Origin: Clostridiaceae bacterium M8S5
GTDB taxonomy: Bacteria; Bacillota; Clostridia; Tissierellales; MCWD3
NCBI GenBank assembly: GCA_029227815.1
Contig: CP118523.1
Coordinates: forward strand, 4,395,500-4,459,499
DNA length: 64,000 nucleotides
Direction of reading: 5' to 3'
Shown here: positions 21,564-60,587 of the stretch, in pieces
How the letters are laid out: every line of letters begins with the position of its first letter
Numbering within the stretch: the first letter of the stretch is position 1
The notes under the pieces: generated by a model
What the model saw: only the letters and a program-made list of their open reading frames with translations
What the model was told of the DNA's origin: nothing
Databases searched by the model: none
Program-made: the position numbers and the translations under genes

Positions 21564-22364
21564 ATGAAAAATAACAATATAAATTGGCAAAAAGAAAGTA
21601 CTCGATTTGATGTTGCATCTGATTATTACGATAAATATCGACCTAGCTATCCTAGTCAAATGATAGAACACCTTTTAAAGTATACAAATATGGTCCCTAC
21701 AAAACAAATATTAGAAATAGGTTCTGGTAGCGGGAAAGCAACAGAACTGTTCGTTAATAGAGGCTATAATTTAACATGTATAGAACAAGGTGTAAACCTT
21801 GTCTCTAAAGGAAACGAAAAGTTTGCTCATACAAATCAAGTCAGTTTTATTAACACTAGATTTGAAGATTGGCATGTATCAAAAAACACTTATGATTTGG
21901 TAATTTCTGCTCAAGCGTTTCACTGGGTTGAAAAACCATTAGGTTTTATTAAGAGTGCAAAAGCCTTGAAACCAAATGGTCATGTTGGGTTATTCTGGAA
22001 TATGTACTATGACGATGAAGATATATCTACAAAGCCACTTATTGATATATGTAAAAAATATGGTGTTGTACCATTTTCAACTCGTAGCAATCTACAGAAA
22101 TTACAACTAATTAACATTAAAGAAATAAATGAAAGCAATGTCTTTAATAAACCTGATGTTTTTGTGTATCCATGGTCTATTATTACAGATTGGCAAGCCT
22201 TTGTAGGCTTTTTAAAAACAGGAAACGGATATATTGCTTTAAAACCTTCCGTTAAAACCCAACTTGAGAACGAATTATTATCAATTTTTAAAGCTTTAGG
22301 TGGAAGTTTTGAGTTTAAATTTAAATGCACACTATATATAGCTCAAAAAAAAATAGCCTCATAA
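21564..22364 (+). CDS. Class I SAM-dependent methyltransferase
   Basis: Motif I ILEIGSGSGKATELF; 266 aa; an AAAGGAGG RBS. Confidence 0.65.
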   Translation: MKNNNINWQKESTRFDVASDYYDKYRPSYPSQMIEHLLKYTNMVPTKQILEIGSGSGKATELFVNRGYNLTCIEQGVNLVSKGNEKFAHTNQVSFINTRFEDWHVSKNTYDLVISAQAFHWVEKPLGFIKSAKALKPNGHVGLFWNMYYDDEDISTKPLIDICKKYGVVPFSTRSNLQKLQLINIKEINESNVFNKPDVFVYPWSIITDWQAFVGFLKTGNGYIALKPSVKTQLENELLSIFKALGGSFEFKFKCTLYIAQKKIAS

Positions 22365-22549
22365 AATGAGGCTATTAGATTGATTACAAAGTCATCAAGA
22401 TAGCAGACTGTGGTAAGAGTTCAAGTTCAAGGCGTGTTAAAATTGAGTAGCACAGCTTACTTAGAGGTAAGTGAGCAACGGAAATTTTGGGACAACGCAG
22501 AAATTGGGCTTTTGTCTACAGTCTGATAGCCTCATAAAAATGAGGCTAT
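22353..22549 (+). repeat. Copy A of a ~148-nt structured repeat element (core 22379-22525), bracketed by two copies of the local terminator hairpin ATAGCCTCATAAA(A)TGAGGCTAT (22353-22375 and 22526-22549)
   Basis: About 90% identical to copy B at 26151-26298 in the same orientation. It has internal stems with compensatory changes, and the flanking hairpin is duplicated on both sides. Confidence 0.7.
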
Positions 22550-22563
22550 TACTTATTCTACTA

Positions 22564-25691: not shown

Positions 25692-26075
25692 ATGATTATG
25701 AATTCTGTGGAGCAAGCTGTTTCTAAATATTTTGAGGATTGCAACAAAGGGTGTAACAATATTGTATCTTGCGAAATGCTAGACGAATTGATGGACAATA
25801 ATAAGGAAGACTTATTTATTTTAGACATAAGAAAAGCAGAAGATTTTAAAAAAGGACACATTGATAGTGCTATAAATATTTTTTGGTATGAGTTAGGTGA
25901 ATGTATAGATGTCTTACCAAAAGACAAAAAAATTATAGTTGTTTGCTACTCTGGTCAATCTGCAGGGCAAGTAGTTTCATTGTTAAAAATATTAGGATAT
26001 GATGCATGTTCATTAAAGGGTGGTATGTTGAACGGGTGGTTACAAAGTTCTCTCCCTATTAAAGAGGGCTGCTGA
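25692..26075 (+). CDS. Rhodanese-like (sulfurtransferase) single-domain protein
   Basis: Active-site loop CYSGQSAGQ; 127 aa. Confidence 0.7.
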   Translation: MIMNSVEQAVSKYFEDCNKGCNNIVSCEMLDELMDNNKEDLFILDIRKAEDFKKGHIDSAINIFWYELGECIDVLPKDKKIIVVCYSGQSAGQVVSLLKILGYDACSLKGGMLNGWLQSSLPIKEGC

Positions 26076-26118: not shown

Positions 26119-26326
26119 AGAGGATGGCTTATATTAAGCCATCTTCTTAGGTTGATGACAAAGTCATCAAGATAGCAGACTTTAGTAAAAGTTCAATTTC
26201 AAGGCGTGTTAAAATTGAGTAGCAGAGCTTACTTAGAGGTAAGTGAGCAACGGAAATTTTAACAACAACGCAAAAATTGGGCTTTTGTCTAAAGTCTGAG
26301 AGGATGGCTTATATTAAGCCACCCTA
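26119..26326 (+). repeat. Copy B of the ~148-nt structured repeat element (core 26151-26298), bracketed by two copies of a different local hairpin GAGGATGGCTTATATTAAGCCA (26119-26146 and 26299-26326)
   Basis: Same element as copy A; here the flanking duplicated hairpin is specific to this locus. Confidence 0.7.
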
Positions 26327-26840
26327 TTGGATATTAATTACTAGCGTTTTGCAAAATAATATCTTGTATATCTAATAATAGGTGGTGGTTTCTTTCATTA
26401 TATCGGGCTATATCATCACTAATAGTATTTTCTGGGCAATACTTATAACATGCAAGACAGTTTTGACTGATTTTAAAGCTATTGTCGTATAGTTGTCTAA
26501 AATATCTATATCAAATACAGCTTCTTTGAAATTACGGATAAACCGAACTATACTTTTGCAACAATTTATAACTAAAAACATAGCATTTGAATCTAAAGAC
26601 GACAATGATATTTATATTATATAAAATATCATATATATTTTTATATTAAATATCCGAATATCTTTGAGTCTTTATTTTTTAAATAGAACGGAAAAAATCA
26701 TTGAATTTTTAATTTTAGAACGACTAAAGTGCTTAGCTCCGTTTAAATATCGAAACCAAGCACTCGTGTATTAAATTTTAATTAATTGATTGTCCACTTG
26801 ACAAAACCCATTTCAACTAATGAATGTTATCTTAATCTTA

Positions 26841-32975: not shown

Positions 32976-34694
32976 TTAGCTTCTATCTGTGTAGTGTGTA
33001 TGAAGTAATTCGTGTGACACATGACTTAATGGCTTTTCTAAAAATTCTTCATATAACACAGCTACTGCAGGATTCTTGTGAGATTTTCTAATCTCTGAAT
33101 TTCCATCTATCTGATATATTCCTTTTATTCTATTTTCTCTTATTTCGTTAGTTATAGGTATAGGTTGACCACCTCCACCTATACAACCTCCTGGACAACA
33201 CATAATCTCTATAAAATGAAAATCTTCTTTACCTGATTTGACTAGCTCTAGTATTTCCCTTGCGCTTGCCAGGCTATTTGCTACTGCCACTTTAACATCT
33301 AAATCGCCAACTTTAACTGTAGCTTTTTTAATTCCTTTAAGTCCCCTAACTCCCTTAAATTCAATATTTTCTAGTTCCTCTCCTGTAACTACCTCATAAA
33401 CAGTTCTAAGAGCTGCCTCCATAACACCTCCAGATGCTCCAAATATTACTGCTGCACCTGTTGAAATCCCCAATGGATCATCAAAATTATCTTCTACTAA
33501 TGTATTTATATCAAGCCCAACTTCTTTTATCATCTTAGCTAACTCTCTTGTAGTTAAAACCACATCTACATCCTGATATCCACTATCCGCCATTTCTTTT
33601 CTTCCTGCTTCTGCTTTTTTTGCGGTACATGGCATTATTGAAACTACATAAACATCTTTTGGATCAATACCTATCTTTTTAGGATAATAAGTTTTTGCTA
33701 ACGCACCAAACATCTGTTGTGGTGATTTACAAGTAGAAACATTATCTAAGAATTCTGGATAGAACTGTTCTACAAAATTAATCCAACCAGGGCTACATGA
33801 AGTCAACATTGGCAGTTTACCGTTGTTTTGTATTCTGTGAAGAAGTTCATTTCCTTCTTCCATGATTGTCAAATCGGCTGTAAAATTTGTATCAAACACA
33901 GCGTCAAACCCTAAATGCCTAAGTGCTGTAACTATTTTACCTGTTACTATACTTCCTGGCGGTAAACCAAAATCCTCACCTAATGCAACTCTTACTGCTG
34001 GAGCTATCTGTACAACAACATGTTTGCTATTATCATCTAAAGCACGCCAAACTGTGTTAATATCACTTTTTTCATATAATGCTCCTACTGGACAAACATT
34101 AATACATTGCCCACAATAAACACACTTAGTATCAGCAAGCCCCAAAGAAAAAGGTGTATCTATTCTCATATCACTACTTCTATGAACATTGTCAATAGCA
34201 CCTATACCCTGCACTTCATGGCATACTTCTACACATCTACCACATTTAATACACTTGCTTAAATCTCTAACTATAGATGGATTAGAGCTATCTATAGGCA
34301 AATATTCAACTGTTTTTTCTAGTTTATACTCTCTTATATTTAGTTCATTACATAACTGCTGCAACTCACAATTTCCGTTTCTAACACAGGCAAGACATTC
34401 TGCGTTATGATTTGATATAATCATTTCAACTATTGCTCTTCTTGCATCTCTTACCTTTTTAGTATTAGTTTTTATGACCATACCTTCTCTTACTGGCGTA
34501 CAACATGATGCTGCAAGTGTATTTTGTCCTTCTACCTCTACCACACATACACGACAGCTACCTTTTATATGTTGATCTGGATGAAAACATAATGTTGGTA
34601 TTTTTACATTTACCATTTTTGCTGCATCTAATATAGTTGTTCCATCATCCACAGAAACAGTTTTATTGTCTATAGTCAAATTTATTTTACTCAT
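32976..34694 (-). CDS. hydA: [FeFe] hydrogenase catalytic subunit (HndD/HydA-like): an N-terminal 2Fe-2S domain, 4Fe-4S ferredoxin domains and an H-cluster domain
   Basis: H-cluster motifs L1 TSCSPGW, L2 MPCTAKKAEA and L3 EIMCCPGGCIGGGGQP; 572 aa. Confidence 0.85.
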   Translation of the reverse strand: MSKINLTIDNKTVSVDDGTTILDAAKMVNVKIPTLCFHPDQHIKGSCRVCVVEVEGQNTLAASCCTPVREGMVIKTNTKKVRDARRAIVEMIISNHNAECLACVRNGNCELQQLCNELNIREYKLEKTVEYLPIDSSNPSIVRDLSKCIKCGRCVEVCHEVQGIGAIDNVHRSSDMRIDTPFSLGLADTKCVYCGQCINVCPVGALYEKSDINTVWRALDDNSKHVVVQIAPAVRVALGEDFGLPPGSIVTGKIVTALRHLGFDAVFDTNFTADLTIMEEGNELLHRIQNNGKLPMLTSCSPGWINFVEQFYPEFLDNVSTCKSPQQMFGALAKTYYPKKIGIDPKDVYVVSIMPCTAKKAEAGRKEMADSGYQDVDVVLTTRELAKMIKEVGLDINTLVEDNFDDPLGISTGAAVIFGASGGVMEAALRTVYEVVTGEELENIEFKGVRGLKGIKKATVKVGDLDVKVAVANSLASAREILELVKSGKEDFHFIEIMCCPGGCIGGGGQPIPITNEIRENRIKGIYQIDGNSEIRKSHKNPAVAVLYEEFLEKPLSHVSHELLHTHYTDRS

Positions 34695-35979
34695 TTATTA
34701 TCGCCCCCTTATCGAACAGACAACTGTTTGCTCTACATTCCTTGTTAATATGCTCTTTAATCTCATCTTTAAAATACTGTAAACAAGATATCACAGCTGT
34801 AGGAGCGGCTTGCCCTAGTCCACAAAGGGAGGCCGTCTTCATTACTTCGCAGATTTCTTCTAATATCTCTACATCTTTCTCTGTAGCAACACCTTTGGTT
34901 ATCTTATGCAATATCCTTACTATATGTCTATTTCCCTCTCTACATGGAGTACATTTACCACAAGACTCATGTTTAAAGAACTCCATAGTTGCTAATAAAA
35001 AGTCTAACACGCACACACTATCATCAGCCACAAACATTGCTCCTGAGCCTAAGCTTACTCCGTTCTCTCTCAAGCAATCAAAGTCTATCTTTATATCTAG
35101 TAAATTCTCTGGAATACAGGCTCCTGAAGAACCTCCTAGTTGTACAAATTTAACTTTTTTATCCGTATCCATTCCATCGCATAAATTATTTATTATTTCT
35201 CTTAAGCTAATTCCAAACTCTATCTCAAATACTCCTTTATTCACTACATTACCTGATACAGATATGAGTTTTGTTCCACTACTTGATTTTGTTCCATATT
35301 CTTTGTATTTCTCTGCACCTAAATTGAGTATAACAGGTATATTAGCTAGAGTTTCAACATTGTTAACAAGCGTTGGTTTGTTCCAAAGCCCTGCTACTGG
35401 AGGATAAGGTGGCTTAAATCTAGTCCTTCCTGCTTTTCCTTCTATTGATTCAATTAGTGCAGTCTCTTCTCCACATACATATGCACCAGCACCCGATCTA
35501 ACTTCTATATCAAAATCAAAATTAAACCCAAATATATTAGTTCCTAAATAACCTGCTTTTCTTAAAACATCTATACTCTTTATCAAAAGTTCTTTTGTCT
35601 TAGGATACTCTCCCCTTATATATATATATCCCTTAGTCGCTCCAACTGCGTGACCACAGATTATCATACCCTCTATTATTTGAAATGGACTTCCATCTAA
35701 TAACACTCTGTCTTTAAATGTGCCAGGTTCACCTTCATCTGCATTACATATAACATATTTTATAGGCGAATCTTCAGATGCTGTAAACGACCACTTTAGT
35801 CCAGTTGGGAAAGCTGCTCCTCCTCTACCTCTAAGGTTCGACGCTTTTACCTCATCTAGTACTTCCTGTGGCTTCTTTGAAAGTGCCTTCTTAGTAGCAC
35901 TAAAACCACCATTGCTTTCATATTCAGTTATGGATAGTGGATCTATCTTACCACACAATTTAGATATCAAATTTACCAT
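34687..35979 (-). CDS. NuoF-like NAD(P)H-binding flavoprotein subunit of the hydrogenase (HndC/HydB-like, short form)
   Basis: NADH dehydrogenase 51-kDa family motifs (GRGGAAFPTG, the FMN site, and a C-terminal 4Fe-4S motif CGKCTPCREG); 430 aa. Confidence 0.8.
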   Translation of the reverse strand: MVNLISKLCGKIDPLSITEYESNGGFSATKKALSKKPQEVLDEVKASNLRGRGGAAFPTGLKWSFTASEDSPIKYVICNADEGEPGTFKDRVLLDGSPFQIIEGMIICGHAVGATKGYIYIRGEYPKTKELLIKSIDVLRKAGYLGTNIFGFNFDFDIEVRSGAGAYVCGEETALIESIEGKAGRTRFKPPYPPVAGLWNKPTLVNNVETLANIPVILNLGAEKYKEYGTKSSSGTKLISVSGNVVNKGVFEIEFGISLREIINNLCDGMDTDKKVKFVQLGGSSGACIPENLLDIKIDFDCLRENGVSLGSGAMFVADDSVCVLDFLLATMEFFKHESCGKCTPCREGNRHIVRILHKITKGVATEKDVEILEEICEVMKTASLCGLGQAAPTAVISCLQYFKDEIKEHINKECRANSCLFDKGAIINE

Positions 35980-36449
35980 TACTCCACACCTTCTTTCAAG
36001 TCGTTTATAATTTGCATTGCTCTATTAACAGTCAAATTACCATACACTTTATCATTAACTTTTATAGCCGGTGCAACATCACAAGCTCCAAAACAGCTCG
36101 TATATTCAAGAGTAAATAACTTATCTGACGTAGTATCTCCCATCTTTATTCCAAGTACTTGCTCAAACGCATTTGCAATAGCTTTTCCTCTATTTATATA
36201 ACAGGGCCCACTATTACATATCTGTATCAAATATTTACCTCTTTCTTTTGTAGATAGCATAGAATAAAATCCTGCTACGCTGTAAGCTTTACTAAGAGGT
36301 ACATTTAATTCCTTTGAAATATCTCTTAGAGATGTTTCGCTGATGTAATTACCAGGTGTCTGTGACTGTACCTCTATTAACACTTCTAACAGTTTATCTT
36401 GAGTATTACCCACTTTGTTTATGGCTTCCATTACCACTTTGGATTGCAT
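35979..36449 (-). CDS. NuoE-like [2Fe-2S] thioredoxin-fold subunit (HndA/HydC-like)
   Basis: Cys motif C..C...C..C (CNSGPC...CFGAC). A GGGAGG RBS precedes the ATG at 36449; the ORF track start at 36467 is probably too early. Confidence 0.75.
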   Translation of the reverse strand: MQSKVVMEAINKVGNTQDKLLEVLIEVQSQTPGNYISETSLRDISKELNVPLSKAYSVAGFYSMLSTKERGKYLIQICNSGPCYINRGKAIANAFEQVLGIKMGDTTSDKLFTLEYTSCFGACDVAPAIKVNDKVYGNLTVNRAMQIINDLKEGVE

Positions 36450-36502
36450 AATATATCCTCCCTTCAACTTTTAAACATGATTATTTACTCTTCATTAAAT
36501 AA

Positions 36503-36862
36503 TCATAGCTTAATTAACCATTCATTAATCGGCTCATCATACATACTATGCGATATTATTATCGCTCTAGCCATTTTCTGATTTACGTATTCATATGTGT
36601 ATTTTTCGCCCTCTGGAGTGTATATGTCTAACAACGGTTCCCTACAGCACATTCCAATACATCCTGTAGTTTCAATTATTATATTATCTAATTCAGCTTG
36701 TTTTACAGTCTCCTGCAAACTGATTAAGACATCGTTAGCACCAACGCTAACGCTACAGATAGAGTATCCTAATACCGCTCGAAATTTTCCTGATGGTCTT
36801 TTTTTATCTATAGCTTCTAGTGCTTCACTCCTTAATTGTTGATATGACGTTACTATAGACAT
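36503..36862 (-). CDS. Small thioredoxin-like [2Fe-2S] ferredoxin subunit (HndB-like)
   Basis: 119 aa; TGCIGMCCREP motif; first gene of the operon. Confidence 0.6.
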   Translation of the reverse strand: MSIVTSYQQLRSEALEAIDKKRPSGKFRAVLGYSICSVSVGANDVLISLQETVKQAELDNIIIETTGCIGMCCREPLLDIYTPEGEKYTYEYVNQKMARAIIISHSMYDEPINEWLIKL

Positions 36863-41510: not shown

Positions 41511-42062
41511 ATGGCAAGAGATTATAAACTTCTGAAATGGTCTGTAATTTTTATATTCATCAACGTAAAGATTCAGTTTATAAATATAACACCTAATATA
41601 TTGGGCTATATATTAATAGTAATTGCTTGTTCTAACTTATATTATGATACTAACGATAAGTTTTTCTTAAAATCTAAAAAAATAGCCAGTATATTGATTC
41701 TCGTTGACGTGATTATATTCTTTATAAACACTACTAGTCCGTCTTATATTATTTTGCAAACGATAGTATACAATATTTTAAGATTAATGTTATTTTACAA
41801 TATTTATAGTGGAACTATTGCTTTAGTCCATTCCAAATATGCGACTTTAACAATCAAATTGTTTAAAACACAAAAAACCTTGATATATTATTTTGTATTT
41901 CTGTCTATCCTATTTAGTCTAACTTTGTTTTCAAATAATAATGGTCTTACATTTGTACTCTTTTTTAGTATATTTTTTCGATTAGTTTTTGCATTATACT
42001 TAATGGTTGATTTCAATAATATAAAAGCCAAGTTGGAAGAATATGAAGCAACTAATCTATAA
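41511..42062 (+). CDS. Hypothetical polytopic membrane protein (183 aa)
   Basis: Five or six hydrophobic segments; no recognisable motif. Confidence 0.35.
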   Translation: MARDYKLLKWSVIFIFINVKIQFINITPNILGYILIVIACSNLYYDTNDKFFLKSKKIASILILVDVIIFFINTTSPSYIILQTIVYNILRLMLFYNIYSGTIALVHSKYATLTIKLFKTQKTLIYYFVFLSILFSLTLFSNNNGLTFVLFFSIFFRLVFALYLMVDFNNIKAKLEEYEATNL

Positions 42063-42180
42063 ATAATTATAAAGTATAAAAAAGATATCTTTTTGGATAG
42101 ATGTCTTTTTTATATCGTTTATTTGTACAGATTGTTATCTTTTTATGCACAATATAATATCAAAATTGGGTTATTACAAA

Positions 42181-42655
42181 AAAGTATCAAGGGTTTATAA
42201 GATGAAAGAAATACAAGGCATTAAAATGTTTTGTAAAGAACGTTGTACGTGAATTTTTTGATTTACAAAAAATAAGTAACCAAAAAACTAATAGGCGTTG
42301 TATGTCGAGTGAAGTGCAAGGAACATAAAAAATTCTAGTGAATGAGCGTACTAAGGACGTGATTGAACTAATTACTACCGAAAAGGGTTTATAAGAGGAA
42401 TGAGCATACTTAGTATGTATGACTTAAAAATTTTGATTTACAAAAAATAAGAAACCAAAAATTATCTATGATGAGTAAAGTGCAAGGAATAAAAAAATTT
42501 CAGTGAATGAGCGTATTTTAAGATACGTGATTGAACTAATTGCTACCGAAAAATCCCAAGGGTTAATAAGATGAGTGAAGTACAAGGCATTTAAATATTT
42601 TAGCGAGTGAGCGTACTTAGGTACGTGAATGAACTAAAAATTTAAATAACGCAGT
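42181..42655. repeat. Degenerate tandem repeat array (4-5 copies of an ~85-nt unit containing GAGTGAAGTGCAAGGAA...AGTGAATGAGCGTACttagGTACGTGATTGAACTAATTaCTACCGAAAA, with a recurring ~45-nt AT-rich spacer) immediately 3' of the 5S rRNA gene
   Basis: Read directly. Unit starts lie near 42307, 42471 and 42571, with partial copies at 42190 and 42385. The inner hairpin shows compensatory changes (CGTAC/GTACG versus CGTAT/ATACG). Confidence 0.6.
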
Positions 42656-42687
42656 AATTCGCCATCTTAGAAGGCAAACACAAAAAA

Positions 42688-42803
42688 ACTGGCGACGTCC
42701 TACTCTCCCAGGCAGTCTCCCACCAAGTACCATCAGCGCTAAGAGGCTTAACTTCCGTGTTCGGTATGGGAACGGGTGTGACCCTCTTGCTGTAATCACC
42801 AGA
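42688..42803 (-). rRNA. rrf: 5S ribosomal RNA
   Basis: The reverse complement reads TCTGGTGATTACAGCAAGAGGGTCACACCCGTTCCCATACCGAACACGGAAGTTAAGC...GAGAGTAGGACGTCGCCAG, a canonical 5S. Confidence 0.9.
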
Positions 42804-57010: not shown

Positions 57011-58765
57011 CTACAGTGGATATATATCTCTTTTTACATAATGAGTATGAAGTAAATCATGTGCTTTATGACTATTTGGCTTTTCAAAATACTCATCGTA
57101 TATTTTCTTAATCATTGGGTTTTTATGAGATTTTCTTATTACTTTTGCCTCATCTTCATTATATAACGCTTTTGCTCTTTCTCTTCTAACGTCTACATTC
57201 ATTTTAACTTTAGAACTAACATGTGGTTGTCCACCACCATTTACACAACCGCCAGAACAACCCATTACTTCAATAAAGTGATATTGCTTTTCGCCAGATT
57301 TAACTTTTTCTAATAATTCACTTGCACAACCTGTACTATGTGCTACTGCAATATTTACATCTAAGTCGCCAATTTTAATTGTAGCTTCTTTTATTCCTTC
57401 TGTTCCTCTTACCTGTGTGAAGTTTATTTCTTTTAATTCTTCGTTTGTTAATACTTCATACACTGTTCTTAACGCAGCCTCCATAACTCCACCTGTAGCA
57501 CCAAATATTACTCCTGCTCCTGATGATTCACCTAATATTGAATCAAAGTCTTCATCTGGTAGATTTACAAAATCTAAACCTGCTTGTTTTATCATCTTAG
57601 CGAACTCTCTAGTTGTCAATACTGCATCAACATCTTGATGTCCATTACAAGCTAATTCTTCTCTTTTTGCTTCGTATTTTTTAGCTGTACAAGGCATTAT
57701 TGAAACTACATATATCTTAGATGGATCTATATTGTTTTTCTCAGCATAGTAAGATTTAACTACTGCTCCTAACATTTCATGTGGAGATTTACATGTTGAT
57801 AAATTGTCTAGGAACTCTGGATAATAATGCTCACAGTATTTTATCCAACCTGGTGAACATGATGTAATCATCGGTAATTTGCCACCATTATTTATTCTAC
57901 CAAGTAATTCTGTTCCTTCTTCCATTATTGTTAAGTCAGCTGCAAAATCTGTATCAAATACTTTATCAAATCCAAGTCTTCTAAGGGCAGCTGCCATTCT
58001 ACCAGTTACTGACGTACCCATTGCTAACCCAAACTCTTCTCCAAGTGCTGCTCTAACCGCTGGTGCTGTTTGAACTACTACATGTATATCTTTATCTTCT
58101 ATAGCATCCCATACATAATCTATCTCAGTTTTTTCTCTTAATGCTCCTACTGGACATGACACTATACATTGTCCGCAATTTATACATGGAGTATCTCCTA
58201 TTTCTTTATCAAAAGCTGGTGATACAGTAGACTCGAAGCCTCTATTTGCATAGTTTAGTACCCCTATTTTTTGAACATCATTACATACACTTACACATCT
58301 ACCACACAAGATACATTTATTTGGATCCCTTACTATTGAAGGTGATGATGTATCTACTGGTCTTATAGTTTTTTCACCTTTAAACTCTATATCTGTTACA
58401 CCTAACTCTTCACAAAGTGTTTGTAACTCACAGTTATGGTTTCTACTACAAGTTAGACATTCTCTATCATGATTTGATAAAAGTAATTCTAAGTTTGTCT
58501 TTCTTGCCTCTCTGATTTTCTTGGTATTTGTTCTAATAACCATACCTTCACCAACTTTGGCAACACATGATGCTTGTAAAACCCTAGCTCCTTCTACATC
58601 TACTAGGCACATTCTACAGGCTCCTGTCTGGTTTACATCTTTTAAATAACAAAGAGTCGGTATTTTAATTCCAGCACTATTTGCTGCTTCAAGTATAGTA
58701 TATTCTTCTGGAACTTGAATTGATTTATTATCTATAGTAATGGTAACCATACCCATCATATACAC
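57011..58765 (-). CDS. hydA: [FeFe] hydrogenase catalytic subunit HydA (bifurcating HydABC / HndD type)
   Basis: L1 TSCSPGW, L2 MPCTAKKYEA, L3 EVMGCSGGCVNGGGQP, with N-terminal 2Fe-2S and ferredoxin domains; 584 aa. Confidence 0.85.
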   Translation of the reverse strand: MYMMGMVTITIDNKSIQVPEEYTILEAANSAGIKIPTLCYLKDVNQTGACRMCLVDVEGARVLQASCVAKVGEGMVIRTNTKKIREARKTNLELLLSNHDRECLTCSRNHNCELQTLCEELGVTDIEFKGEKTIRPVDTSSPSIVRDPNKCILCGRCVSVCNDVQKIGVLNYANRGFESTVSPAFDKEIGDTPCINCGQCIVSCPVGALREKTEIDYVWDAIEDKDIHVVVQTAPAVRAALGEEFGLAMGTSVTGRMAAALRRLGFDKVFDTDFAADLTIMEEGTELLGRINNGGKLPMITSCSPGWIKYCEHYYPEFLDNLSTCKSPHEMLGAVVKSYYAEKNNIDPSKIYVVSIMPCTAKKYEAKREELACNGHQDVDAVLTTREFAKMIKQAGLDFVNLPDEDFDSILGESSGAGVIFGATGGVMEAALRTVYEVLTNEELKEINFTQVRGTEGIKEATIKIGDLDVNIAVAHSTGCASELLEKVKSGEKQYHFIEVMGCSGGCVNGGGQPHVSSKVKMNVDVRRERAKALYNEDEAKVIRKSHKNPMIKKIYDEYFEKPNSHKAHDLLHTHYVKRDIYPL

Positions 58766-58793
58766 CCCTTACTTTTATTATTTTTATATTTAA

Positions 58794-60587
58794 TTATCCT
58801 AATTTAATTGCATTAAACGGACATTTCTCCATACATGCACCACATTTTATACATTTCTCTTGATCAATACTATGAGGCTTTTTAGTCTCTCCTTCAATTG
58901 CATCAACAGGACAAGCTCTAGCACACAATGTGCATCCTTTACAAGCATCTTCTATTATGCTATATGCTAATAAATCTTTACAGTTTCCTGCTGGACATTT
59001 TTTATCTAATACGTGTGCTTCATACTCGTGTCTAAAATACTGTAATGTTGATATTACTGGATTAGGAGCTGTTTGGCCTAACCCACATAATGCTGAAGCT
59101 TTAATACTATCTGATAACTTCTCTAGCTTATCGATATCTTCTAGCTCTCCATTTCCACTAGTTATTTTCTCTAATAACTCTAACATTCTCTTGGTACCTA
59201 TTCTACATGGTGTACACTTTCCACATGACTCTTCAACTGTGAAATCCAAAAAGAATCTAGCTATATCTACCATACAGTTATCTTCATCCATAACAATCAT
59301 TCCACCAGAACCCATCATAGATCCTAAAGCTGTTAACGAGTCATAGTCTATTGGAGTATCTAAATACTCAGCAGGGATACATCCTCCTGATGGTCCACCT
59401 GTTTGAACAGCCTTAAACTTTTTACCGTTTGGAATACCTCCACCGATATCATATATTACTTCTCTTAGAGTTGTTCCCATAGGTATCTCAACTAAACCTG
59501 TATTATTTATTTTTCCACCCAATGCGAATACTTTTGTTCCTGGTGATTTTTCAGTTCCTATACTTCTAAACCACTTTGCACCATTATTAATGATACTTGG
59601 TATATTTGCATAAGTCTCAACATTGTTGATTAATGTTGGTTTGCCCCATAGACCTTTGTTAGCAGGATATGGTGGCTTATTTCTAGACATTCCTCTTTCC
59701 CCTTCTATAGAAGCAATTAACGCCGTCTCCTCTCCACAAACAAAAGCTCCAGCTCCAAGTCTTATTTCTATATCAAAGTTAAATCCACTACTAAAGATAT
59801 TTTCTCCTAAAAGTCCTTTCTCTTTAGCTTGCTCAATTGCTATTTCTAATCTTTCTACAGCTATAGGATATTCAGCTCTTACATATATAAATCCTTGATC
59901 TGCACCTATTGCATAACCTGCTATTGCCATCGCCTCTAAAACAGCATGCGGATCTCCTTCAAGTATACTTCTATCCATAAAAGCACCTGGGTCTCCTTCA
60001 TCCGCATTACATATTACATACTTTTGGTCTCCTTTTGCACTAGCACAGAATCCCCATTTTAAACCTGTAGGGAATCCTCCACCACCTCTTCCTCTTAATC
60101 CTGAATCTTTTATTACATCTATAACCTCTAAAGGTTTCATTTCAGTTAAGACTTTACCTAGAGCCATATATCCATCAACTGCTATATACTCATTTATATC
60201 TTCTGGATCTATAACTCCACAGTTTTTAAGCGCAACTCTAGTTTGTTTCTTATAGAAGTTTACTTCATTAACTGACTTAATTATGTCTTCTTCCTGAGCT
60301 CCTTTATAAAGAAGATCTTTAACTATTCTACCTTTTAATAAGTGTTCTTCTACTATAGTATCAACGTCTTCTAACTTGATATGGCTGTAAAATGCTCCTT
60401 CAGGATAGACAACGATTATAGGACCTGCCTCACATAGTCCAAAACATCCTGTTCTAACAACCATTATTTCCTTATCCAATCCAGCTTCTTGGATTTTTTC
60501 TTTCATTTTCTCTTCTATTTTATCAGATTTTGAAGATGTACATCCTGTACCTCCACAAATTAATACATGTGATCTGTAAAAATCCAT
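58794..60587 (-). CDS. hydB: NuoF-like flavoprotein subunit HydB/HndC (long form with an N-terminal thioredoxin-like domain and C-terminal ferredoxin domains)
   Basis: GRGGGGFPTG, an FMN/NAD-binding core, a C-terminal 2x CxxCxxCxxxCP; 597 aa. Confidence 0.85.
   Translation of the reverse strand: MDFYRSHVLICGGTGCTSSKSDKIEEKMKEKIQEAGLDKEIMVVRTGCFGLCEAGPIIVVYPEGAFYSHIKLEDVDTIVEEHLLKGRIVKDLLYKGAQEEDIIKSVNEVNFYKKQTRVALKNCGVIDPEDINEYIAVDGYMALGKVLTEMKPLEVIDVIKDSGLRGRGGGGFPTGLKWGFCASAKGDQKYVICNADEGDPGAFMDRSILEGDPHAVLEAMAIAGYAIGADQGFIYVRAEYPIAVERLEIAIEQAKEKGLLGENIFSSGFNFDIEIRLGAGAFVCGEETALIASIEGERGMSRNKPPYPANKGLWGKPTLINNVETYANIPSIINNGAKWFRSIGTEKSPGTKVFALGGKINNTGLVEIPMGTTLREVIYDIGGGIPNGKKFKAVQTGGPSGGCIPAEYLDTPIDYDSLTALGSMMGSGGMIVMDEDNCMVDIARFFLDFTVEESCGKCTPCRIGTKRMLELLEKITSGNGELEDIDKLEKLSDSIKASALCGLGQTAPNPVISTLQYFRHEYEAHVLDKKCPAGNCKDLLAYSIIEDACKGCTLCARACPVDAIEGETKKPHSIDQEKCIKCGACMEKCPFNAIKLG

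Follow-up and report, generated by a model that had tools for sequence, protein, structure and literature searches.

An ERIC-like miniature element in a Clostridiaceae bacterium probably inserts into terminator hairpins and duplicates them

Results

The 64,000-nucleotide stretch of Clostridiaceae bacterium M8S5 analysed here (GenBank CP118523.1, positions 4,395,500 to 4,459,499; hereafter the window) belongs to a low-GC chromosome and carries an rRNA operon and tRNAs. It also holds two + strand copies of a short element, A (22378-22525, 148 bp) and B (26150-26298, 149 bp), which is likely to be a non-autonomous transposon, that is, a transposable element of the miniature inverted-repeat type (MITE), of the superfamily of the repetitive intergenic consensus of enterobacteria (ERIC), attacking palindromic terminators and duplicating their hairpins. 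Each copy lies between convergent genes: A between those for an S-adenosylmethionine (SAM) methyltransferase (+) and a CvpA-like membrane protein (-), and B between a rhodanese-like open reading frame (ORF; +) and nagB (-). The closest homologue of the methyltransferase outside M8S5 is only 52% identical, and the source lineage is therefore isolated. An earlier note on this DNA, made from its letters alone, had described two same-orientation copies of about 90% identity; blastn indeed aligns A and B at 91.8% identity across 147 nt (E=1e-46, same strand), with 12 substitutions and one indel between them, and the window contains no other close copy.

The boundaries G(A/G)TTGAT ... AGTCTG are common to A and B, which sit at unrelated loci and are flanked by different duplicated hairpins. 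Read from the sequence, the terminal inverted repeats of copy A lie at 22378-22393 (GATTGATTACAAAGTC) and 22508-22525 (GCTTTTGTCTACAGTCTG, reverse complement CAGACTGTAGACAAAAGC) on the + strand; the complementarity, seen by setting GATTGATTACAAAGTC against CAGACTGTAGACAAAAGC, is imperfect, at about 11 of 16 positions. What the earlier note had taken for a 5' hairpin overlaps the left repeat, which is the better reading of that sequence. In the clostridial subfamily, the imperfect terminal inverted repeats are GATTGWTKACAAAG... and ...TTTTGTCTAMAGTCTG. By position as well as sequence, the left end of copy A is homologous to that of the Anaerovorax-type elements described below (GAGATTGTTGAAAAAGCC), and 45 nt lie upstream of AAGTTCAAGG in both. 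The conserved ERIC-like core of copy A (22417-22511, +) comprises the stem P1 (AAGTTC/GAAATT), an AAGG loop, a variable stem and the apex ..AGCTTAC-TTAGAG-GTAAGTGAG.., followed by AACGCAG. The same note had seen no ORF in the element. None is conserved, but copy A does contain a 38-codon GTG frame that ends at the terminal TGA of the element; a stop codon and an indel break this frame in copy B, and the element is therefore non-coding.

Copy A is bracketed by two copies of a terminator hairpin, ATAGCCTCATAAA(A)ATGAGGCTATTA (25/26 bp), which occurs in the window only at 22353-22377 and 22526-22551. The left target copy, ATAGCCTCATAAAATGAGGCTATTA (+), serves the methyltransferase gene as its terminator hairpin. 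The TAA stop codon (22362-22364) of the corresponding ORF (21564-22364), which the earlier note had already placed in this copy, sits within the loop. The right target copy (+) has one additional A in the loop. The left hairpin is followed on the - strand by T7 and the right hairpin on the + strand by CTTATTCT; the terminator scan scored both as terminator-like, each on the strand just named. The bracketing of copy B, absent from the earlier note, involves a hairpin that differs from that at site A. Its left copy (26119-26149, +), AGAGGATGGCTTATATTAAGCCATCTTCTTA, is a hairpin with a 14-bp stem located 3' of the rhodanese-like ORF (25692-26075), and its right copy (26299-26329, +) is the same over the first 23 nt and has diverged over the last 8. 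The duplication, AGAGGATGGCTTATATTAAGCCA at 26119 and 26299, is thus exact at 23 of 23 positions and agrees at 27 of 31 up to the element boundary.

A pattern for the nearest, CTTAC/GTAAG subfamily retrieved 24 metagenome loci. About 17 of the 24 carry a near-identical element of ~175 bp, which is found too in an Anaerovorax metagenome-assembled genome (MAG; locus L013) and has a left arm of 45 nt, as in A and B, with a similar terminal sequence. Seven independent insertions of this subfamily are each flanked by a different duplicated terminator-like palindrome of 17-32 bp: ACCAATYAAAGATTGGR (17 bp, L123), AGAAGCCAAAAGGCTTTT (18 bp, L013), AACGGGCGTAATGCCCGTTT (20 bp, L128), AAATATCGCTTTGCGATATTG (21 bp, L113), AAGCATCAATTATTGATGCTTYTTT (25 bp, L117/L131), AAAGGCTGCTTTATAAAGCAGCCTTT (26 bp, L114/L121) and, at L125/L129, a palindrome of 30-32 bp whose two copies have identical stems and different loops (CAAAA vs TTTTTAA), a difference that may stem from loop inversion or turnover after insertion. 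At L013, L113, L123 and L128, the loop is non-palindromic, identical in both copies and in the same orientation on each side, and these are therefore direct duplications. The duplicated segment begins on the A-tract side of the extended palindrome and ends on its T-tract side, and the hairpin at L013, like that at site A, was scored terminator-like. Counting sites A and B with the seven in relatives, nine different hairpins were targeted.

One of these loci holds a further small element. At ~350-440 of L113, on the - strand and 30 bp from the full copy, lies a mini-element of ~100 bp with the termini CAGGTTGTTGAAAAACT... and ...AACTTTTTCAACAATCCC, from which the ERIC-like core is absent. Its two asymmetric termini are the same as those of the Anaerovorax-type element. 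As far as the sequences go, this suggests that the termini may be what the mobilising enzyme recognises in the Anaerovorax-type subfamily, and it would imply that one such enzyme serves at least two types of cargo, the full element and the coreless mini-element.

The source lineage lacks a close relative that could serve for comparison, and we therefore compared empty sites in the relative carrying L013. Three orthologues of the GGDEF protein encoded upstream of this insertion, 81%, 72% and 69% identical to it in amino-acid sequence, keep the gene order. In the first and the last of these (L137 and L140), the element is absent and there is a single terminator hairpin, just as the earlier note had anticipated for orthologous loci that lack the insert; the hairpin at L137, GAAGCCTAGGGGCTTCTTTTTT, can be recognised as a homologue of the duplicated AGAAGCCAAAAGGCTTTT. 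The remaining orthologous locus (L139, 1280-1335) contains an internally deleted copy, in which the left terminus is joined to the 3' part (GATTTTGTTGAAAAAGAGCGCAACGCAGAAATTCGGAGATTTTCAACAACCTG), with a hairpin on the right side only. The idea that the terminator was duplicated upon insertion, which had been put forward for copy A, is thus borne out by copy B, by the seven sites in relatives and by the orthologous sites with one hairpin.

It could be objected that the hairpin repeats were not made by insertion at all, but reflect either a preference of the element for existing tandem terminators or later events at palindromes, such as slippage during replication or template switching. Replication errors are indeed known to be provoked by palindromes, and the loop that differs between the two copies at L125/L129 would fit such an origin. 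However, at nine sites with nine hairpins the element lies exactly between the copies, with constant boundaries; the orthologous empty sites have one hairpin and not two; and no other tandem identical terminators exist in the window, where each hairpin is found only at its own element. We therefore regard this explanation as highly improbable. The element has features of a MITE: it is small, has no conserved ORF and is bounded by terminal inverted repeats and by a direct duplication that is missing from empty sites, with the caveat that the length of this duplication is atypical and variable.

Wider searches placed the element in a large family. Exact 20-27-mers of the element had no match in viral, genome and metagenome collections, and blastn searches gave no match to plasmids and only chance 30-nt matches to phages. 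Within the window, a weak blastn match (42578-42659) leads to a repeat cluster beside the 5S rRNA gene that has a motif in common with the element. This cluster, which is flanked by a + strand ORF that ends near 42062 and by the 5S rRNA gene (42687-42803, - strand), contains a third family member of another subfamily (42566-42672, +; apex CGTAC/GTACG). About 15 nt separate this member from the 3' end of the rRNA gene, and no long flanking duplication is in evidence. It is joined by three decayed or partial copies of this second subfamily (42170-42565, +; for example 42472-42560, 22.6 bits), and a stretch of 40 nt that contains a hairpin occurs twice, at a distance of 175 bp (42247-42286 and 42422-42461), which could be the product of repeated insertion into hairpins already duplicated. 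Among the units in the window, the apical stems differ compensatorily (CTTAC/GTAAG, CGTAC/GTACG and CGTAT/ATACG).

From the features common to the element and the 5S-side units, we derived a degenerate pattern and scanned species-representative genomes with it, which gave at least 111 loci in more than ten phyla. The matches span Bacillota, Bacteroidota, Desulfobacterota, Campylobacterota, Proteobacteria, Patescibacteria and others; among the taxa matched are many Bacillaceae, Alistipes and other Bacteroidales, Desulfonatronum and other Desulfobacterota, Arcobacter and other Campylobacterales, Halomonas, Polaromonas, Thiomicrospira, Gracilibacteria, Anaerovorax, Filifactor and Tepidibacillus. 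Conservation reaches beyond the search pattern and takes the form ...AAGTTCAAGGC, variable stem, GGAGCRTAY-loop-RTAYGTGAG, variable stem, CAACGCAGAAATT.... Clustering of the ORFs within 2.5 kb of the 111 listed loci revealed no gene in common.

Some family members stand in head-to-tail arrays: four copies with a 175-bp period in Pseudohongiella (L046:5905-6524), four at ~130 bp in an uncultured Clostridia MAG (L067:6354-6837) and two at 122 bp in Bacillus sp. SCS-153A (L050:2413-2630). The Bacillaceae copies L017, L076 and L110 (3' arm) and L007, L025 and L101 are enlarged by an additional hairpin of ~35 nt (..GGTGGGGCGAGTAATCGCAGACCCCATCGG..) or by ~55 nt of inserted sequence with CCACGTCCTGTGGCG. 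The latter occupies a fixed internal site, and CCACGTCCTGTGGCG-type repeats recur beside other copies, in the flanks of L008, L029, L055, L060 and L097; they look like a second small repeat family nested in or adjoining the element. The window also contains several collinear direct repeats of 70-76% identity between 32990-36810 and 57040-60025 (families D1, D5, D7, D9 and D13), which indicate a paralogous block of - strand genes duplicated ~24 kb apart; families D3 and D4, with three copies, belong to the same set.

On the + strand, copy A forms a 122-nt hairpin (22404-22525) with a minimum free energy of -51 kcal/mol (z=-6.1 vs shuffles), and copy B forms a hairpin of ~120 nt with -57 kcal/mol (z=-9.4), whereas the - strands fold more weakly (-30 kcal/mol for A and -44 kcal/mol for B). 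The folds contain the compensatory changes claimed in the earlier note, namely one fully compensatory change from G-C to U-A in the outer stem and several from G.U to A-U. Two copies by themselves are thin evidence; it is covariation at the level of the family that supports the structure. In an alignment of 53 diverse cores from other phyla, which includes no window sequence, RNAalifold identified 19 pairs, 10 of them with compensatory changes. A covariance model made from this alignment and searched with filters off matched the core of the third member (42572-42665) at 74.9 bits, that of copy A, end to end, at 72.2 bits and that of copy B (26189-26284) at 64.1 bits; the E values of these three window matches range from ~1e-15 to 1e-12 (A ~1e-14, B ~1e-12), and the background reaches ~17 bits at most. 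Across 104 family members, pairing cells amount to 91.3%, compared to 71.6% in shuffles, and the covariation score is 0.470, compared to 0.131 in shuffles (0 of 500 shuffles) and 0.05-0.10 with slid partners; double changes occur in 14 of the 19 pairs. Pairs of the G.U/U.G type outnumber A.C/C.A by 156 to 27, or by 61 to 27 if the invariant G.U is excluded, from which we conclude that what is selected is one of the two strands, in single-stranded form. The GGAG and UGAG conserved beside the apical stem could, to judge from their sequence, pair as tandem sheared G.A. The conserved secondary structure under selection that had been postulated from two copies is thus supported by a window-free covariance model and by covariation in 104 members. 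Rfam 15, at gathering and E-value thresholds, contains no match at the element in the window, where it produced only noise, and none in 17 related loci.

Given this structure, it seemed conceivable that we are dealing with a family of small RNA (sRNA) genes, each copy being a stand-alone sRNA that uses the right hairpin as its terminator and has spread by duplication or recombination. The strand-biased, covarying structure with unpaired nucleotides conserved across phyla, the far better folding of the + strand and the terminator-like hairpin 3' of the element on this strand would all agree with such genes. However, promoter-like sites are absent inside and just upstream of both copies; the only + strand promoter-like site at copy A lies within the methyltransferase ORF, and copy B has none. 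Defined ends, terminal inverted repeats and site-specific flanking duplications, as well as the empty-site comparison, also speak against sRNA genes, and the orientation of the family members relative to the upstream gene is unbiased (53 vs 51, by crude ORF calling), with a weak excess of convergent downstream genes by the same rough measure. An sRNA gene family is thus an unlikely explanation. As a MITE may also be expressed as RNA, however, the question here is one of the primary nature of the element, and an RNA function would fit either answer.

In a related scenario, the element would be mobile through its RNA, the + strand transcript being copied at terminator-flanking nicks by target-primed reverse transcription. 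The variable length of the duplications (17-32 bp) would be natural for this process, the conservation of an internal RNA-like structure instead of the termini would agree with it, and the strand bias indicates selection on one single strand. Yet the boundaries of the duplications coincide with the ends of the palindromes and do not vary freely, the termini are inverted repeats with neither a 3' A-tail nor a primer-binding feature, the coreless mini-element has identical termini, and no reverse transcriptase is associated with the loci among the ORFs within 2.5 kb of the 111 listed. We consider such a retro-mobile element even less probable than an sRNA gene.

The apex of the family resembled what we take to be the ERIC primer region. 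For comparison, we used the 127-nt E. coli ERIC consensus of Delihas 2007 (PMC2759123), the reverse complement of which reads ...CAAGGCGGC-N-GGAGCTTACATAAGTAAGTGAC-N-CCAACGCAGC.... This consensus fits the four-block signature of the family with spacers of 19/4/21, a signature that has 78 matches in the collected loci and 0 in three shuffles of ~2 Mb; copies A and B depart from it in one block, with ACAGC and AGAGC instead of GGAGC. At the apex, the ERIC consensus agrees with a Pseudohongiella copy at 21 of 22 positions, as compared by eye, and the family model, whose source alignment includes no sequence from the window or from E. coli, matches the E. coli ERIC locus at the right place and on the right strand with 20.0 bits. 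The ends tell a different story from the core. The E. coli ERIC copy has TA flanks within TATAC...GTATA, while Bacillaceae copies have the termini GYGTGTTCAAAAAG.../...CTTTTTGAACAWCCTC and AT-rich direct repeats of 6-9 bp at fixed positions, for example TCTATAAGT, TCTTTTAGT and TTAAAGTGA. Terminus types include TATA and GTTGAAAAA, and duplications fall into the classes TA, 6-9 bp and hairpin. From the comparison of Bacillaceae, E. coli and clostridial copies it follows that the core is common, while termini and duplication class are lineage-specific. ERIC superfamily elements can accordingly be described as hairpin-shaped, ~95-175 bp long and conserved across phyla in their internal core rather than in their termini.

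Discussion

Our results place the M8S5 element in the ERIC superfamily, as a new but distant member; ERIC has not been described from its phylum before. The earlier note had named a match to a known MITE family as grounds for doubting its proposals; such a match exists in part, to a remote superfamily, and it reclassifies the element while undercutting neither of them. Judged from sequence blocks and the structural model, the link to ERIC appears real but remote.

We consider it probable that the element is a non-autonomous transposon that inserts into terminators and duplicates their hairpin. A transposase encoded elsewhere in the genome would move it in trans; its termini presumably resemble the inverted repeats of the IS6 or IS256 family of insertion sequences (IS), which we take as a lead only. 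Integration would occur at palindromic, bidirectional intrinsic terminators between genes, with strand transfer on opposite strands at either end of the palindrome, and gap repair would then copy the entire hairpin, so that the length of the duplication tracks that of the hairpin (17-32 bp) instead of being fixed. In the simplest geometry, the palindrome would be extruded as a hairpin or cruciform and attacked at its base, which brings the two sites side by side; we favour extrusion because a fixed stagger on B-DNA would hardly yield duplications of 17-32 bp. Once the element is in place, the upstream A-tract would stay with the left hairpin and the downstream T-tract with the right one, so that for each of the convergent genes the complete terminator, hairpin plus U-tract, would be the distal copy, and the element would thus probably be transcribed into both 3' untranslated regions (UTRs). 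There, a strand-biased RNA hairpin could alter the stability of mRNA 3' ends, an effect that has been reported for Yersinia ERICs.

A bolder proposal is that the core is not passive cargo, but a structured single-stranded RNA or DNA that guides or recruits a structure-specific integration machinery to extruded terminator hairpins. We put this forward as a speculation that is far more likely to be wrong than right. If true, it would explain both why the core and not the termini is conserved in more than ten phyla and why the duplications are hairpin-sized, and the element would represent a kind of mobile element that has so far gone unrecognised.

Several observations weigh against our interpretation. 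No transposase and no autonomous element with matching ends was found in the neighbourhoods of the 111 listed loci, and a search for terminal-repeat pairs at the spacing of a full IS gave nothing usable. In the source genome, the hairpin duplication is seen at two copies (n=2), and at site B the last 8 nt agree at only 4 of 8 positions, which places the true length of that duplication between 23 and 31 bp. Among the relatives, L119 and L071 have no evident hairpin duplication, and the flanks of L127, L134 and L135 are mismatched and recombine among contigs, probably as chimeras from assembly across the repeat. The shorter duplications elsewhere (6-9 bp, TA) mean that one mechanism may not cover the whole superfamily. 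Attack on a cruciform, transcription into the 3' UTRs and an effect on mRNA are steps that we infer. As for ERIC, the covariance-model match is modest (E ~0.04), and a sequence-only hidden Markov model of the family (nhmmer) found nothing above shuffles in the ERIC consensus; the link to ERIC is therefore carried by the covariance model and the spaced-block signature.

ERIC repeats have served as typing targets for thirty years, and according to reviews published as late as 2024 they occur in Enterobacteriaceae and Vibrionaceae only, with neither transposase nor function known. The data presented here indicate that the ERIC core is one branch of a family of structured elements in many phyla, absent from Rfam, the internal structure of which is under strand-specific selection, and that its clostridial members probably integrate by duplicating entire terminator hairpins. 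The way in which the duplication tracks the palindrome points to structure-directed strand transfer at the base of a cruciform or hairpin, which, if true, would be a new geometry of target capture in bacterial transposition. For annotation, tandem terminators around a 150-bp hairpin can be read as likely insertion scars, and the insertion would shift the effective terminator of each gene by ~175 bp downstream.

Comparison with known systems

Among known repeats, ERIC/IRU (RU-1) is the closest. Both it and the M8S5 element form a long hairpin of ~120 nt from an imperfect palindrome, both occur in multiple non-coding copies between genes, at gene ends, and they have the blocks CAAGGCG, N~19, GGAGCTTAC-loop-GTAAGTGA, N~20 and CAACGCAG in common, with order and spacing kept. 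They differ in their ends: the termini of ERIC read TATA... and its target duplication is TA (PMC2759123, PMC3184786), with no transposase known (PMC10969869, PMC3184786, PMC2267715), whereas the M8S5 element has GATTGAT.../...CAGTCTG and duplications of 25/26 and 23-31 bp, and it carries an extra left arm of 26 nt. Their hosts differ too, ERIC having been described from Enterobacteriaceae and Vibrionaceae only (PMC10969869), and the present element occurring in a Clostridiaceae bacterium. In the literature we did not find whole-hairpin duplication described for ERIC or for other insertion elements, nor a precedent in published work for cruciform-targeted transposition with long duplications.

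The Correia/NEMIS, RUP, bcr1 and Nezha elements are likewise small, non-coding, multicopy and intergenic, have terminal inverted repeats and target duplications and can fold as RNA hairpins (PMC3184786, PMC10969869). They are, however, restricted to lineages, conserved in their termini and flanked by fixed duplications of 2-9 bp, whereas here a core is conserved across more than ten phyla, the termini vary by lineage and the duplication follows the length of the hairpin.

An analogy, though no more than that, exists to Cas1-dependent integration, in which a staggered attack at the two ends of the target duplicates it whole, the target often being palindromic. Spacer acquisition by Cas1-Cas2 duplicates the repeat, and casposon integration 14-15 bp (PMC5137440); in both, a ruler fixes the length and a Cas1 integrase is needed. 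Here, the duplications vary between 17 and 32 bp, and the element has no cas1 context. Its variable duplication length led us to drop a ruler mechanism of a casposase or Cas1 as a candidate; also dropped were the IS200/IS605 PATE elements, which make no duplication and differ in end architecture, integron attC sites, which make no duplication, and class C group II introns, which differ in size and make no duplication.

In their choice of target, the closest parallel is the IS1182 family (IS1272/TnSha1 of staphylococci; ISCbo5/ISBma2 of C. novyi and C. botulinum group III), which likewise targets terminator hairpins. These elements are present in Clostridia, insert at gene ends and use as targets terminator-like inverted repeats of ~22-30 bp, chosen by structure and with no specificity for primary sequence (PMC4923244, PMC5678879, PMC3098183). 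IS1272/TnSha1 and ISCbo5 are thus a precedent for structure-directed targeting of terminator hairpins. However, IS1182-family elements are autonomous, ~1.9 kb long and encode a DDE transposase, while the element described here is non-coding and 148 bp in length. The outcome at the target differs as well: IS1182-family insertions are reported to remove or replace part of the hairpin and to leave no target duplication (PMC4923244, PMC5678879), whereas here the whole hairpin is kept on both sides.

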